Below are positions 1,616 to 37,250 of a stretch of 64,000 bases of DNA, piece after piece (the first letter of the stretch is position 1; the number at the start of each line of letters is the position of its first letter). The translations under genes were made by a program, and so were the position numbers. The notes under the pieces were generated by a model. It made no database searches. It was not told where the DNA came from and saw only the letters and a list, made by a program, of their open reading frames with translations. Source of the DNA: a virus; IMG/VR virus record IMGVR_UViG_3300032018_000001, positions 1-64,000 of that record; one strand, written 5' to 3'.

Positions 1616-2166
1616 ACACCATAGAATTTTCAACTCCGGTTATTTACGGCGCGGATACCTCTGCTATTCCCTTGGAGTGGCTGGATGCCAGCTTTGAAAA
1701 TATTGACTTTACTGGAAAAGAAAATCTTAAGGATTTCCTGGTAGAGTACTTCAAGCATTTCAGCTACAGTAAGGATGGTAGCCGGTACGACAGCTTGGTG
1801 TTCACACCGAATGACTTTTCCTTTCAGCTGCTAGTAGCAACGTACAAGGAAATTGCTGGTAGGATTACCGTGGACAATTACCGATTTTTTGTTTGGCCGT
1901 CTTACTCAGCGATGCTGCGCGGCTCAGGCTTTAAGGCGGATAACATTCTGCAGGAAGACCTGTTCGGAATAAAATTCCTTTTCATTTTCGATTTGATTTT
2001 CTACCACAAAGATTCCATTGACTACTTTTGCAGCATCCTGGACTTCTGCTACTCCAATAGGGTAACGCTTTTTATTTCCATGCGGAATGCAGCGGCGATG
2101 GATAGTTTGCCTGCTGAGTATATTAATATGGTTAAGGATAAGCTTTATACAGTAAAGGTAAAATGA
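1612..2166 (+). CDS. DnaC/IstB-like helicase loader with degenerate Walker motifs
   Basis: SAIPLEWLDASFEN resembles the DnaC N-motif; FLFIFDL at Walker B position; ILDFCYSN..TLFIS resembles IIDxRYxN..TIIT; directly upstream of the helicase. Confidence 0.55.
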   Translation: MNTIEFSTPVIYGADTSAIPLEWLDASFENIDFTGKENLKDFLVEYFKHFSYSKDGSRYDSLVFTPNDFSFQLLVATYKEIAGRITVDNYRFFVWPSYSAMLRGSGFKADNILQEDLFGIKFLFIFDLIFYHKDSIDYFCSILDFCYSNRVTLFISMRNAAAMDSLPAEYINMVKDKLYTVKVK

Positions 2167-3581
2167 CAAGAGACCATAAGACGGAGCTCCTGCTTGCCGG
2201 GTTACTACACGATAAGATTTTGTTTATTGAGGTAGCAAGCAGGTTCAACGGTAAGGTATTTGAGCTGGAAGATTACAACCGGTTTTTTGAATACCTGAAA
2301 TTATTCTACAAACAATTCAAAAAGAATCCCACGCGGGCGGAATTTGAAATCTTCGTGGACAGGCGCGTGCTGGCTGATTTTGTTTTCCTTGATGACGTTT
2401 TTTATAATCCCGAAATCGCCTCTGATGTTCTCCGCAAAAAGCTGTATGACAGTTATCAGAAAATGCAGACGCTGGAATTCGTAGAGGAGCTGGAGCAGAA
2501 GATAGATACCGGAAAGATGGATATTCAGGAAACCTTTTCCGGTATGAAACAGGTTGTGCTTAATACATCGCAGCCTGATACCTCCTACGTTGAAATAGGC
2601 CCCGGTAACGCCGTGAAGCTTTACGAGAATGCCAGGGATTACCGTCTGGACAGCACCAGCCCTTTCATCTTTAAACAGATTTCCAAAATAGCTGCGGGCG
2701 GGATAGCAAACAGGGAGCTGGGCATATTCATAGCACCTCCTAACAGAGGCAAAACAAATTACCTGATAAACGAGTTATACAACGGCCTTGTGCTCCAAGA
2801 AAAAACGCTGATGCTTTCTATGGAGAATGAGCCCGACAGTATCAATTCCAGATTATCGAATAGGATACTACTCATGACGAAACATGAGCAGCGTATCAAT
2901 AAGGATTTCTGCAAGATGTGGATTGAGAAATTCTACCGCTGGGTTACGGTGCCTACCATTATGTATCGAGCGCCGAATACCTTTACCGTATCAGAATTTG
3001 ATTTGTGGCTGGAAGAATACGAGTTGAAGCATGGCGTCCGCTTTGACCGTATCATCGTTGACTACATGAATAAATTCAAGAAGGGCAAATCAGCCGAAAA
3101 GGTGAATGACTGGGATGCTGTCAGGTTTATGACGGATGAGCTTAGGGCCATAGCAATAGCAAGGAACACCAAAATCATCACGGCCGGTCAGACTAATCGC
3201 GGGGGCCTGTATGATAAGGAAGGCTCAGAGAACAGCGAAGTGAACGAGTCTCACATAGCAGGAGGATTCGGACAGTTTGAGACGGCTGATATTGTGCTGG
3301 CCTTCTCTGAGACGCAGAATGAGAAGCAGCGCGGTGTAGGCAGGGTTAGCATACTAAAGATGCGTGAGGCCGGGGGTCGCGGGCGCGGCTTTGTGGTCAA
3401 TGTGTGTCCCTGGATAGGACTCATTACGGATAGCCCGGATGACATTATTCCTTTGGATAAAAAGAAGATGCTGGAAAATCCTGATACCGCTTTTGGTGAA
3501 TTGAAGGGCCTGGAAACAAAACCTCCGGATGCTAATAGAAAGAAAGCTAAATCGATGTTTCCTCAAACAGGAGCGCAATAA
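2163..3581 (+). CDS. Replicative DnaB-like (SF4, T4 gp41-like) helicase
   Basis: Walker A APPNRGKT, LSMEN, IIVDY, TAGQTNR, ADIV, KMR. Confidence 0.9.
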   Translation: MTRDHKTELLLAGLLHDKILFIEVASRFNGKVFELEDYNRFFEYLKLFYKQFKKNPTRAEFEIFVDRRVLADFVFLDDVFYNPEIASDVLRKKLYDSYQKMQTLEFVEELEQKIDTGKMDIQETFSGMKQVVLNTSQPDTSYVEIGPGNAVKLYENARDYRLDSTSPFIFKQISKIAAGGIANRELGIFIAPPNRGKTNYLINELYNGLVLQEKTLMLSMENEPDSINSRLSNRILLMTKHEQRINKDFCKMWIEKFYRWVTVPTIMYRAPNTFTVSEFDLWLEEYELKHGVRFDRIIVDYMNKFKKGKSAEKVNDWDAVRFMTDELRAIAIARNTKIITAGQTNRGGLYDKEGSENSEVNESHIAGGFGQFETADIVLAFSETQNEKQRGVGRVSILKMREAGGRGRGFVVNVCPWIGLITDSPDDIIPLDKKKMLENPDTAFGELKGLETKPPDANRKKAKSMFPQTGAQ

Positions 3582-4323: not shown

Positions 4324-4538
4324 TGATGATGAAACAATTTTGCAGACAAAAAGGGCCCACAAAAAATATTAAGCATTACCGCTTTGTGTACATGCTTCCT
4401 TTGCACGCCGGGTGCAGACCAAAGCCCTCAGATATAAAATTGCACCGTACTATGATTCCTGCTAAAACAAAAACAGAAGCTAAGCGAATTTTTGAAGCTG
4501 CTTACCCTTCCGCCAAGATTGTGAGCATAGCATGCTAA
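4323..4538 (+). CDS. Small basic hypothetical protein
   Basis: Translationally coupled ORF. Confidence 0.55.
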   Translation: MMMKQFCRQKGPTKNIKHYRFVYMLPLHAGCRPKPSDIKLHRTMIPAKTKTEAKRIFEAAYPSAKIVSIAC

Positions 4539-5467
4539 TGCCTTCCTGGGCGCAAGACATAATGACGATGTATCGTAGCCGGGTCAAGGGTGACGAAATT
4601 ACCCTGAGGGATTGCCCGTACTGTCATAACTCGCGCTGGAATTTTCAGATTTCTGTGAATGGCTGCATGTTTCACTGCTGGGTTTGTGGCGCAGGCAAGG
4701 GTGAGACCGTGGCCAGCCTGCTACGGCAGGCCCAAATACCCTTTGACCCTGCTGACATTAAGATAAAGAGGCGGGCGGAAGAAGGCCCTGCTGGTAGCAT
4801 TGTGCTTCCTAATAACCGGAAGCTGCTATACAACGATACCCGGATTGCTATCATGGCCAGGAATTACATGCTCTCGCGGGACGTAGATGAGGCTTTGATG
4901 GAAGACTGGGATATGCGGATAGGCCTGGGAGAGGATAAAGAAAAGTGGGGCATGGATTATTTCGGCTGGACAGTAGTACCCTTCTACGGCCTGTACGGGC
5001 TGGAGTATTTCATGGCCGTGAACAGCGGGTTTACAAATAAGTACAGCTTTCCTGATAAGGATAAATTCCCTGAGCTGGGTAAGGACAAATTCATTCCTAA
5101 GCGCCGTGGAAGTGATAGCATTATCCTGGTGGAAGGTCTGTTTGATGCGACATCCGCGTGGAAGTACACAGACCTGGATGTGTTCCCGCTCTTTGGAAAA
5201 TTTATAGGCAGCAAGCAAAAGGAATTGTTGCTTAAAGTCAACTATGAAAAAATATATGTCTGCTTGGATGCGGATGCGATAAAAGAGGGTATGGATTTGG
5301 CGGAAACCCTGTACCGTGAGGGCGGAAACGCTTACATCGTTTGCCTGCCTGATGATTCTGACCCTAATGAGCTCGGTGAGCGTATTAATATCTATATAGA
5401 CAGCGCAATTAAGTTCGGCCTTACTACACGTTTGCGCTTAACGAGAATGAGGTTGCTATCAGTTTAA
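4532..5467 (+). CDS. DNA primase (Zn finger + TOPRIM)
   Basis: CPYC..FHCWVCG zinc finger; ILVEGLFDA; CLDADA; DPNE. Confidence 0.9.
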   Translation: MLMPSWAQDIMTMYRSRVKGDEITLRDCPYCHNSRWNFQISVNGCMFHCWVCGAGKGETVASLLRQAQIPFDPADIKIKRRAEEGPAGSIVLPNNRKLLYNDTRIAIMARNYMLSRDVDEALMEDWDMRIGLGEDKEKWGMDYFGWTVVPFYGLYGLEYFMAVNSGFTNKYSFPDKDKFPELGKDKFIPKRRGSDSIILVEGLFDATSAWKYTDLDVFPLFGKFIGSKQKELLLKVNYEKIYVCLDADAIKEGMDLAETLYREGGNAYIVCLPDDSDPNELGERINIYIDSAIKFGLTTRLRLTRMRLLSV

Positions 5468-5468
5468 T

Positions 5469-5636
5469 CTGGGCCGGGAACGAAGTAGGCGCGAGCGCAG
5501 GCAGGAGCGCCCGCGGTGGAAACAGCGCGGGGTAAATCCGACAGCGCGGCATACGCTGACTGCTACCAGCCTGTTGCGTGAGTCCAAAGAGCTGTAACAC
5601 GGCCAGCTACATGCAATGGATAAGTTCCCGGCTCAG
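5469..5636 (+). ncRNA. Putative structured non-coding RNA (168 nt), family unknown
   Basis: 13-bp closing helix CTGGGCCGGGAAC/GTTCCCGGCTCAG; several internal hairpins; GC-rich; followed by a T-tract. Confidence 0.65.
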
Positions 5637-5648
5637 CCTATTTTTATT

Positions 5649-5825
5649 ATGAATATATACTTTGACAAGATGAGAGTTGATTTTCCTAACCCGGTGCCCG
5701 TTGCTGTTGACTACGGAGACCGCGCTGATGGGATCTCTGACATTCGCGGCGGATTTATAGATTTTGAAAACTTTGTTACTATGCGGAAAAGAAAGCTTAC
5801 TAAGGAGCTGTCTGAATGTCAGTAG
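5649..5825 (+). CDS. Small hypothetical protein
   Basis: ORF downstream of the RNA element; start moved to the ATG outside the closing stem. Confidence 0.45.
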   Translation: MNIYFDKMRVDFPNPVPVAVDYGDRADGISDIRGGFIDFENFVTMRKRKLTKELSECQ

Positions 5826-6079
5826 GCGATGTTCAAATACAATACTTTTGCGCCACGGTATCTTTTCAAAAAGGTGCTGAGATACGGCGCATGTTTTTGC
5901 CTTGCATTTTATATTCGTCTGAAGTGAAACTTAAAAATTACCTGAACAAATGTGGCATTGTTTTAGAGCACTGTTCGCTGCTTACGGACGCCGATATGTT
6001 TCTTCAGCAGGCCGGTGATGCTATCCGCCGTAATATTGACCTGGAAGTTTTAAATGCAGGAGGTAAAAATGGTGCGTGA
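5816..6079 (+). CDS. Hypothetical protein
   Basis: AAGGAG RBS; overlapping ORF chain. Confidence 0.6.
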   Translation: MSVGDVQIQYFCATVSFQKGAEIRRMFLPCILYSSEVKLKNYLNKCGIVLEHCSLLTDADMFLQQAGDAIRRNIDLEVLNAGGKNGA

Positions 6080-6260
6080 CATACTTCTGGTTGATGATGA
6101 AGGAAGAAAGACGCTTAAGGTAAATTTACCGGCAATACCAGCAGACACTAAATTGGTAATATGTTTTCATGATGTGCTTCCGGGTAGTATTGTGGCTACT
6201 GGTATTTATCCGCCAACACGCAACAAGACTTGGAAGCTTAAGGTGCGCGAGTACAAATGA
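6069..6260 (+). CDS. Hypothetical protein
   Basis: AGGAGGT RBS before ATG 6069. Confidence 0.6.
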   Translation: MVRDILLVDDEGRKTLKVNLPAIPADTKLVICFHDVLPGSIVATGIYPPTRNKTWKLKVREYK

Positions 6261-7840
6261 TAGGCTGCACAATAAAAAGCGGCAGGGCTTACCTTAGCAA
6301 CCTGGGAAACAGGGAAGCTCAGACCATTAATGACCTTCTGACTTTTTCAGTTCCGGGTCATGAGCACATGCCGCTATTCCAGCAGGGAAAGTGGGACGGC
6401 AGGAAAAGCTTTTTTGATTGGCGCACAAAGTCAATAAAGAGAGGCCTGCTGGAATACCTTCGCAGAAAATCCGGTATCATCATTCAAGTGCTGGAGTCTG
6501 ACTGTACCTGCTATACCTTGCCATTTACGCCCGTTAAGATTTATAAAGACGGTAAGGTTTACGATATGCGTGACTTTCAAATCGAAGGCGTTAAGCTCAT
6601 GATTGATAATCTGGGCGGACTAGCTCAAATAGCAACCAATGGAGGAAAGACAGCCTGCATTAGCAGTCTATCAGCAGCAACCCGGCGCATGAGGCAGCAT
6701 GCTATCATCCTGGAAAACCGGGTAGACCTCCTGGAGCAGGTGCAGGCTGAGGTGGAGGCCAGCATTGAAGGCCGCATAGGCTCCTACACAGCCAAGGTTA
6801 AGGACATAAAGGACATCACTATCCTGATGGTGCCTACGGTGGCGCAGGCCATGAAGCGGGTCAGGGAAGGCACCGGCAGCTCCAGGGACGAAGACCTTGT
6901 GGAATACATCCGGGGTGTGGACATCGTACTGGTTGATGAGGTGCACCACGCCACGGCTCCTTCGTATCAGGACATCATGAATGTGAATCCCAAAGCTCAG
7001 CGCTTTGGCTTTTCGGGTACTATCCCAGAAGAGACCAAAGAAATAACCGTAATAAACAAAAAGAAGGTAGAGGAGAAAGTAACTGTAACGGATTTGGACA
7101 ACCTGGGGCTTGTGGAAATTTTTGGTGATGTGATGATTCGCGTTCCTAATAGCGAGCTGATTGCCAGGGGAATAAGTGCTAAGCCTACTATCAATCTTAT
7201 CGAATACGACATCTCCGGGCTGGAGGGCAAGGCCGAATTGTTTGCCGGTGAAATTCGTAACACCTGCTTCAAGAAAGCATTTGTGGGAACGGATAGCACC
7301 GGGGAGGCCATTGTTAAAAACATATTCAGCGTTCCCACGTACACGAGTAAGGTAAAAGAGTACGTGATGAATTACTCTGTCAAGCACTGTCAGGAATTCT
7401 GGGACATCCTTAAAAAGCTTACGATAAAACACGCTAATGTTCCCACAGTTATATTGGCGGACTGGGTAGATTTTTCAGAGAAGCTTGCTGTGTGGCTGGA
7501 TGCTACGGTCATGCACGGCAAGACCAAAGACCGGAAGCAAATCATTACCGATTTCAAGACCGGAAAAATAAATCGAATAGTAGCAACCTCTGTTTTGGAT
7601 GAGGGCCTTTCCATTGACCAGATACGTGTAGTCATTCTGGCCACGGTAGGAAAGTCAGAGCGCCAGTTTCTTCAGAGGATAGGCCGCGGGCTCCGAAAGA
7701 AGGATGAGGACAACACGCTGAAGGTTTATGATTTTGTACGTCACGGCCATAAGTATCTCCTGGGGCCCTCTAAGGAACGCATTCAAATGTGGAAGGAAGA
7801 AGGATTCGATGTGCAATTTTTAGACGTGGAGGATATATGA
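6257..7840 (+). CDS. Superfamily 2 DEXH helicase (UvsW-like)
   Basis: RDFQ Q-motif, ATNGGKT, VDEVHH, GFSGT, DEGLSI, QRIGRGLR. Confidence 0.9.
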   Translation: MIGCTIKSGRAYLSNLGNREAQTINDLLTFSVPGHEHMPLFQQGKWDGRKSFFDWRTKSIKRGLLEYLRRKSGIIIQVLESDCTCYTLPFTPVKIYKDGKVYDMRDFQIEGVKLMIDNLGGLAQIATNGGKTACISSLSAATRRMRQHAIILENRVDLLEQVQAEVEASIEGRIGSYTAKVKDIKDITILMVPTVAQAMKRVREGTGSSRDEDLVEYIRGVDIVLVDEVHHATAPSYQDIMNVNPKAQRFGFSGTIPEETKEITVINKKKVEEKVTVTDLDNLGLVEIFGDVMIRVPNSELIARGISAKPTINLIEYDISGLEGKAELFAGEIRNTCFKKAFVGTDSTGEAIVKNIFSVPTYTSKVKEYVMNYSVKHCQEFWDILKKLTIKHANVPTVILADWVDFSEKLAVWLDATVMHGKTKDRKQIITDFKTGKINRIVATSVLDEGLSIDQIRVVILATVGKSERQFLQRIGRGLRKKDEDNTLKVYDFVRHGHKYLLGPSKERIQMWKEEGFDVQFLDVEDI

Positions 7841-25609: not shown

Positions 25610-25612
25610 TTA

Positions 25613-25712
25613 GGTTGCGGGTCAGGCGGCATGGGAGTCTGAGTTACTATGAGTAGGACGCTACTATTAGTTAGGACTTGGAGTGATACCGCTACCTGAC
25701 CCGCGGCTTTTT
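25613..25712 (+). terminator. Long (~95-nt) irregular hairpin with 3' T-tract between ssb and recA; terminator, attenuator or small RNA
   Basis: GCGGGTCAGG/CCTGACCCGC outer stem; AGTAG-GACG-CTACT apex; TTTTT after. Confidence 0.55.
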
Positions 25713-36960: not shown

Positions 36961-37123
36961 AAAATGCCGCTTTGAGGGCTGCAAGAAGAAAGAATCTGAT
37001 GCTTTTGATTTGCGTGTGGAGGGTAAGCATATCCCTCTTTGCGAAGAACACGGGGAGTACACCATGCAGAAGATGCTGCTGGATAATCCTAGCGCAGTTG
37101 TTTCAACAAAAGTAGTGCATTAA
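36941..37123 (+). CDS. Small zinc-binding protein
   Basis: CRFEGC...LCEEH. Confidence 0.55.
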   Translation: MSKSPLKKCRFEGCKKKESDAFDLRVEGKHIPLCEEHGEYTMQKMLLDNPSAVVSTKVVH

Positions 37124-37126
37124 ACC

Positions 37127-37231
37127 GGGGAGATGGTGAAACTGGCAGACACACTGTACGGGTCGCAACCGTTGGCGCGTGATGACGCAACACAGAACAT
37201 CACATTGAAGGTTCGACTCCTTCTCTCCCCA
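37127..37231 (+). tRNA. Atypical tRNA-like RNA (105 nt): canonical acceptor, D and T arms; remodelled anticodon/variable region; identity undetermined
   Basis: GGGGAGA/TCTCCCC-A acceptor; GTG-AAACTGGCAGA-CAC D arm; GAAGG-TTCGACT-CCTTC T arm; no encoded CCA. Confidence 0.75.
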
Positions 37232-37250
37232 GCTTAATGCACGGTCAATA

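Follow-up and report, generated by a model that had tools for sequence, protein, structure and literature searches.

A GC-rich intercistronic element with a long closing helix downstream of a phage primase gene, a candidate cis-acting RNA module

A GC-rich noncoding element, which we call island 1, is located directly downstream of the primase gene in an uncultured phage, and its ends pair with each other to form a 13-bp helix (P1) that brackets the intergenic gap exactly. The element is absent, along with the small gene that follows it (ORF58), from the closest relative with available DNA, and a second island in the same genome is closed by a helix with the same core. We tentatively favor the possibility that island 1 is a cis-acting intercistronic RNA module that would fold within the operon transcript and separate the primase message from the downstream one, in a processing or insulating role.

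The source record in IMG/VR is 141,806 bp in length and has direct terminal repeats. Its first 64 kb (64,000 nucleotides) constitute the stretch studied here, which we refer to as the window. Judging from its replication proteins, the phage is an uncultured, distant relative of the SPO1-like (Herelleviridae) group, because its helicase and primase are only ~27% identical to that group's counterparts from phages of Bacillota. Roughly 92% of the genome is coding, and nearly all genes lie on the + strand. The primase has only eight relatives among 5.8 billion clustered proteins; its homologues include P0002-P0008 and P0014, and a metagenome scan with the primase yielded only relatives of at most 32% identity. 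The coordinates of the features under discussion are given in Table 1.

Table 1. Features in and around island 1. Positions refer to the window unless labeled "genome".
Feature	Position	Strand	Description
DnaB-like helicase gene	2163-3581		replication module
Toprim-type DNA primase gene	4532-5467	+	stop codon at 5465-5467; Pfam Toprim_2 and Toprim
Promoter-like 9-mer copy	5381-5389	+	inside the primase 3' end, 80 nt upstream of island 1
Insertion block (island 1 and ORF58)	5464-5818	+	~355 bp; from blastn and a three-way alignment with L005
Island 1	5469-5636	+	GC-rich, noncoding, 168 nt, 62-64% GC
P1, 5' arm	5469-5481	+	13 contiguous pairs with 5624-5636
Robust hairpin	5510-5531	+	six G-C pairs, then a G.G mismatch and two further pairs capped by a GAAA tetraloop (5519-5522)
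P1, 3' arm	5624-5636	+	outer 8 nt identical to the 3' arm of island 2 (genome 76798-76805)
U-run	5641-5645	+	4 nt between it and P1; within an A/U-rich stretch before the next start codon
ORF58	5649-5825	+	58-codon gene; no Shine-Dalgarno sequence; same insertion block as island 1
Superfamily-2 helicase gene	6257-7840		replication module
Island 2	genome 76639-76812 (L032:12639-12812), outside the window	+	174 nt, 65% GC; from a scan for long-range contiguous helices

The boundaries assigned to island 1 in a preliminary description of this DNA are correct. The element starts 1 nt past the primase stop codon and ends 12 nt short of the start codon that follows. The gap that it fills is the most GC-rich of the 39 intergenic gaps of at least 120 nt (GC fraction 0.64, vs 0.32-0.53 in the others). 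Structured RNAs are enriched in long GC-rich intergenic regions, and island 1 shares with the RNA candidates found in such regions (Stav et al. 2019, PMC6429828; Brewer et al. 2021, PMC8632094) the property of being a high-GC gap in a lower-GC genome. However, those candidates were accepted only with covariation across many representatives (PMC6429828, PMC8632094). As a single sequence, island 1 cannot be called a new class.

No coding frame is present in island 1: stops occur in all frames, no codon signal is specific to a frame, and a six-frame search produced zero Pfam matches. A coding remnant was rejected on the last two of these grounds. Because every frame of the island has stops, an extension of the primase by read-through or frameshifting was rejected as well, and so was a group I-type intron, because joining the flanks would destroy the start of the next gene. 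One short frame deserves mention. Positions 5503-5581, inside the island, contain a 21-codon frame in the primase frame that opens with GUG and has AGGAG 8 nt upstream; its codons score like those of a gene, although so short a frame does not allow a verdict, and its AGGAG is paired in the MFE fold.

The existence of the 13-bp closing helix is well supported by folding calculations. P1, the helix originally proposed, is contiguous, with one G.U pair, a duplex energy of -24.9 kcal/mol and a pair probability of ~1.0 in every context folded. Inverted repeats of at least 12 nt are not rare, as the window contains 33 pairs that lie within 250 nt of each other. P1 is unusual by its G-C content and its exact bracketing of the intergenic gap, not by its length. 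In the whole genome, only four long-range helices on the + strand have at least nine G-C pairs, and P1 is among them.

The remainder of the island is less distinctive, and its earlier characterization as a compact multi-helix RNA was overstated, since the interior structure is at chance level and the fold is ambiguous. Compared with dinucleotide shuffles, the whole island folds better (z -3.25, with 0 of 200 shuffles as good), and the + strand (-78.1, z -3.25) exceeds the - strand (-73.1, z -2.81). Its MFE is the lowest in absolute terms among 3332 genome windows of 170 nt, and the 13th after GC correction. Once P1 is removed, the 142 nt that remain have no advantage over shuffled sequence (z -1.06), and 29 of 200 shuffles did equally well. 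The CCCGCG/CGCGGG hairpin proposed within this interior holds up as a GC hairpin with pair probabilities of 0.93-1.0, although its tip refolds into a GAAA tetraloop. For the other inner helices (P2, the 5542-5558 hairpin and the 5583-5620 arm), complementary segments exist, but their pair probabilities are only 0.03-0.15, and the two 4-nt pairings suggested as pseudoknots amount to complementarity at chance level. The complete fold that was initially drawn has an energy of -62.0 kcal/mol, which is 15.6 kcal/mol worse than that of the MFE fold (-77.6 kcal/mol), in which 5571-5583 pair with 5606-5619. The segment 5569-5579 has two mutually exclusive pairings, either upstream (the P2 of the initial fold) or downstream (the arm of the MFE fold). 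The parts of the island predicted to be robust are P1 and the one GC hairpin with its GAAA tetraloop only.

Comparison with related phages indicates that island 1 belongs to a block that is present in some phages and absent from others. In L005, the closest relative with DNA (76% nucleotide identity), the block is absent, and the primase stop codon overlaps the start of a homologue of the window gene at 5816-6079 (72% amino acid identity). Because L005 thus joins the primase directly to this homologue, the ~355 bp at 5464-5818 represent an insertion or a deletion. A short repeat of the junction sequence borders the block, at 5459-5463 and 5819-5823. A 17-nt junction repeat found at three places in the genome was rejected as a coding or Shine-Dalgarno coincidence. 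In all five relatives with DNA (L002-L006), whose primases are 40-78% identical, the primase stop codon is either directly followed or overlapped by the next gene, so that none of them has an island.

The second component of the block, ORF58, is evidently a real gene, because its homologue matches from end to end and its codon usage is typical of phage genes. This homologue, P0010, is the only one among ~15 billion proteins; it is 58 aa long, is 79% identical, and has the same start and end. The codon score of ORF58 is 0.337 bits/codon, compared with 0.26+-0.11 for genes, and the off frames are negative. ORF58 has no Pfam or PHROG family (the best PHROG match is non-significant, with E 0.071), and the metagenome scan gave no match to it. 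Its AlphaFold model, a beta hairpin and a helix, has low confidence (pLDDT 65.6, pTM 0.35).

The P0010 contig (5125 bp, JGI sample 3300069644) carries a primase (890-1825) that is 93% identical to that of the window, and then a 219-nt gap (1826-2044) and ORF58 (2045-2221). The order of primase, gap and ORF58 is therefore common to two phages, with a gap of 181 nt here and of 219 nt in the relative. Judged by length, an island-sized gap appears to be kept in the second phage. A search with a translated frame of the island, aimed at a spurious 46-aa call in this relative, returned no match. Scans of metagenomes, viruses and genomes recovered no homologues of the island. Among the other relatives, only the P0006 contig (Logan SRR14699978, 1473 bp) has a long gap at this location, in which a 45%-identical primase is followed by 306 nt that are free of genes; this gap might hold an analogous element.

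Island 2, in the part of the genome beyond the window, resembles island 1 in its location and in its closing helix. It starts 3 nt past the stop codon of a small ORF and ends 26 nt short of the start codon that follows, and its closing helix has 17 bp and encloses 140 nt. When the inner ten pairs of this helix are compared with P1, eight positions match, and the 3' arms have an identical 8-mer. The G.U pair of P1 corresponds to A-U in island 2, and one G-C pair is replaced by U-A, which is a compensatory change on both sides. The background frequency with which helix pairs in the genome share an 8-mer is 0.2%; however, the shared core was found post hoc, and its probability by chance is ~0.01 when the number of pairs examined is allowed for. 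Inside their helices, the two islands show no relationship to each other (z ~0), and the covariance model of island 1 scores only 6.8 bits on island 2. No U-run follows the helix of island 2. Its flanks carry a 10-bp direct repeat (genome 76632-76641 and 76821-76830).

A complete hammerhead core, including its three stems, is present in the interior of island 2. It corresponds to a sub-threshold match to Rfam HH9 (13.6 bits, E 2.4, gathering score 52) and is reproduced by the MFE fold of island 2. Compared with shuffles, the interior of island 2 has a z of +0.36. Because this interior is as unremarkable as that of island 1, the chance-level structure of the latter is no argument against function.

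Island 1 could not be matched to any known family of RNA. With Rfam 15, there were no matches at the gathering score in the whole window and none at E<=10 in 5300-5800. These results, together with the lack of any gene called by ARAGORN in the window, agree with the earlier view that the island could not be matched to tRNA, tmRNA, SRP, RNase P or a small ribozyme. The suggestion that it is undescribed is likewise upheld by searches of DNA, in which there was no similarity to the island among 50,697 phage records and 72,556 plasmids. R1, a covariance model built on the island, recovered only the island itself in the window, in 29 related loci (200 kb) and in the full 142-kb genome. Exact or degenerate patterns were also run against IMG/VR and 185,579 species genomes, and the matches listed were all attributable to chance. 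For example, one candidate (L031) was rejected both by the covariance model and by eye, and at least 118 matches to the helix core in IMG/VR were rejected because they lack the full helix and are in uniformly GC-rich phages. As a candidate structured RNA element between the cistrons of a phage operon, island 1 is an orphan, and nothing like it is catalogued.

We also evaluated individual types of elements. A hammerhead is defined by CUGANGA, GAAA and a UH cleavage site joined by three stems; island 1 has no CUGANGA in 5469-5636 and no hammerhead match at E<=10. A retron msr-msd RNA was rejected since, although an inverted repeat is present, the 142-kb genome has no RVT_1 match. An integron attC site was rejected as well. 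Such sites have R'' and R' core sites (RYYYAAC/GTTRRRY) and an internal G|TT that marks the cassette boundary, and they go with an integron integrase. The inner ends of P1 are AAC and GTT, but purines stand where the consensus has pyrimidines and vice versa. When mapped against L005, the boundary of the block falls beyond the island and takes in ORF58, and no Phage_integrase match exists in the genome. An omega RNA of TnpB or IscB was rejected, as no TnpB/Cas12f-type zinc-ribbon family matches the genome and the neighbors of the island are a primase and a 58-aa orphan.

It is plausible that island 1 is an element that acts at the RNA level from the + strand, based on its outlying GC content, its lack of a coding frame, the G.U positions, the asymmetry between strands, and a helix that brackets the gap exactly and shares its core with island 2. 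Our tentative proposal of a cis-acting intercistronic module is based in addition on the primase-gap-ORF58 order in two phages, the absence of the block from L005, the comparable location of island 2 between genes with its enclosed sub-threshold hammerhead core, the promoter-like motif 80 nt upstream, and the documented existence of intercistronic hammerheads in phages. The proposal is weakened by the unremarkable interior, the ambiguous fold and the lack of any match to a ribozyme family at E<=10. It is also weakened by the unrelated interiors of the two islands, by the post hoc discovery of their shared core, and by the fact that the element is dispensable, as L005 and four more distant relatives lack it.

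Under this proposal, island 1 would have arrived, or be kept, as one block with ORF58 at a junction that in the relative is a tight stop/start overlap. After transcription, P1 would hold the GC-rich interior together as a closed domain, with the primase stop codon on one side and the start codon of ORF58 on the other. The domain could then supply a protected 3' end for the primase message and a structured 5' end for the ORF58/helicase message. A cut within the domain, by a host RNase or an unrecognized catalytic core, would leave the primase and ORF58/helicase on separate RNAs. Folding may depend on translation of the primase, because a ribosome halted at 5465-5467 would have the 5' arm of P1 in its footprint; in the same manner, a ribosome at the stop codon upstream of island 2 would cover the 5' arm of that island's helix.

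Among the closest known elements are the hammerheads located between cistrons in phages and prophages, one of which is 13 nt upstream of the start of a viral helicase gene, and which are thought to cut long transcripts into gene-length mRNAs (Perreault et al. 2011, PMC3088659). Like them, island 1 is on the coding strand, between cistrons, near the next start codon and in a replication module. Island 2 encloses a hammerhead core, and the transcript-cutting role that we propose is the one suggested for those ribozymes (PMC3088659). Unlike them, island 1 has no hammerhead or other catalogued ribozyme core, and at 168 nt it is much larger.

If such a module does operate, a large SPO1-like phage would be able to insert accessory genes into overlapped operon junctions without disturbing the neighboring genes, and the accessory gene would bring its own RNA "insulator". 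The closing helix shared by two otherwise unrelated islands, one of them with a hammerhead core, would then suggest a scaffold that can serve repeatedly for small functional RNAs, and perhaps a new ribozyme.

Excised stable RNAs, such as tRNAs, 6S, SRP and RNase P RNAs, typically have a long terminal helix that pairs both ends. P1 resembles these helices, and island 1 could therefore instead be an independent, stable noncoding RNA that acts in trans, whether as a decoy, a guide, a scaffold or a new ribozyme. Such an RNA would either be released from the operon transcript or be transcribed from the 5381 promoter-like motif, and its paired ends would resist exonucleases. The GC content of the island relative to other gaps and the robust hairpin with its GAAA cap are consistent with such an RNA, and the phage has other RNA genes (a tmRNA, 89.1 bits), as well as the promoter-like motif upstream. 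We nevertheless regard this explanation as unlikely. The island matches no family, is single-copy, and is absent from all known relatives but one; its interior is not significantly structured; and the offset of the U-run means that a canonical terminator does not set the 3' end.

The U-tract that was originally placed after the closing helix is present, but it is not adjacent to the helix, as it begins 5 nt past it. Intrinsic terminators consist of a G-C-rich stem, a short loop and a U-run within 0-2 nt, and in the evident terminators of this phage, the U-run abuts the stem of a short hairpin. An additional large element of this general type is located directly after the SSB gene (window 25612-25709), where 98 nt of intergenic sequence form a 15-bp G-C-rich closing helix (-27.1 kcal/mol) that encloses a long imperfect hairpin and has a U-run immediately after it; the element resembles an intrinsic terminator of unusually large size. 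Island 1 resembles intrinsic (Rho-independent) terminators, including this one, in that a G-C-rich helix occurs right after a stop codon with a U-run downstream. However, the interior of the island is branched and 142 nt in length, not a loop of 3-8 nt, and the U-run is displaced by 4 nt. Given this "loop", the distance of the U-run from the stem, and a consensus scan that did not call a terminator at this U-run, we rejected an intrinsic terminator for island 1.

The presence of a 9-mer, CGTATTAAT, inside the primase gene at 5381 had also been pointed out, and this copy is one of 16 in the genome, all on the + strand. Ten are in the window (5381, 9252, 17544, 23817, 28346, 35661, 37462, 41800, 50903 and 51382), where 0.35 are expected, and six more are beyond it. 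Most copies are just past terminators and 15-60 nt upstream of start codons. From this distribution, the 9-mer is clearly a real, genome-wide and phage-specific signal of a promoter-like kind, which presumably functions as a promoter. The copy at 5381 is conserved in L005, but within conserved codons. Because L005 has no island, this copy predates the island; it probably serves the downstream genes.

These signals raise the question of whether island 1 could be a leaky or conditional attenuator, or a leader that senses a ligand or protein, for the operon of ORF58 and the helicase. In this case, P1 and the U-run would stop a fraction of the transcripts that arrive from the primase gene or start at the 5381 motif. 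The order of elements fits, with a promoter-like motif, a leader of ~250 nt, a GC-rich helix, five U residues and ORF58 on the same strand. Moreover, island and ORF58 are co-inherited in two phages, the segment 5569-5579 has its two alternative pairings, and the element after the SSB gene is another case of a large helix with a U-run. Nonetheless, attenuation appears unlikely. The U-run is 5 nt off the helix, where clear terminators have it abutting, and it was not called in the scan; a 13-bp helix of this stability makes a poor switch; and island 2 has no U-run after its helix. With respect to riboswitches and leaders more generally, the gene order is shared by two phages only, and no known class matches.

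A different explanation is that the element functions as DNA and that its RNA fold is a by-product. It could be a MITE-like insertion with terminal inverted repeats of 13-17 bp, or a recombination site of a cassette. Island 1 is similar to bacterial MITEs such as Correia and RUP in its size (~170 bp), its terminal inverted repeats, its location at a gene junction, its presence/absence polymorphism and its capacity to fold as RNA. The short duplicated junction sequence is in accord with this explanation, as are the related terminal repeats, unrelated interior and flanking 10-bp direct repeat of island 2, and both islands occur in stop/start junctions that are otherwise compact. However, the duplicated junction encloses ORF58 too, not the island alone. 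Unlike MITEs, island 1 has no direct repeat that abuts its inverted repeat and is single-copy by sequence, and the second element in the genome shares only the repeat core and not the interior. Neither a partner transposase (among the families tested) nor a tyrosine recombinase or RT was found in the genome. The G.U positions in both closing helices weaken the repeats at the DNA level, and the boundary is not at G|TT inside the repeat, as it would be in an integron attC site. We consider an element of this kind to be distinctly unlikely.

A more far-reaching hypothesis, which at present seems to us quite improbable, is that both islands belong to a phage-borne family of portable RNA cassettes of ~170 nt. 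Their shared G-C-rich closing helix would be a common scaffold or processing stalk, and their interiors would be interchangeable catalytic or otherwise functional cargos, namely the hammerhead in island 2 and, in island 1, a self-cleaving or otherwise functional RNA of an undescribed class.

It is very improbable that island 1 lacks a function and is a GC-rich leftover that came with a horizontally acquired ORF58 and has fortuitously complementary ends: the interior has no more structure than shuffled sequence does, repeats of the P1 type (12-13 nt, inverted) occur often, relatives dispense with the element and nothing similar occurs elsewhere, but its G-C-rich helix coincides exactly with the gap boundaries and has a core in common with a second island, the gap is retained in a second phage (where, by its length, it is even longer), and the island shows no sign of a coding frame in decay.

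Our searches also revealed other features of this genome that involve RNA genes or inverted repeats. The tmRNA gene is on the + strand at genome positions 83199-83546 (L032:19199-19546) and matches Rfam RF00023 with 89.1 bits (gathering score 47, E 3.6e-33); this gene was missed by ARAGORN, which detected no tRNA genes (0 genes) across the whole phage genome. A tRNA-like segment is present in the window at 37115-37242, where a T-arm-like sequence is found within a region closed by a 19-nt inverted repeat (89% complementary); ARAGORN made no call there. Beyond the window, at genome positions 75165-75315, a small ORF is bracketed by a perfect 13-nt inverted repeat.
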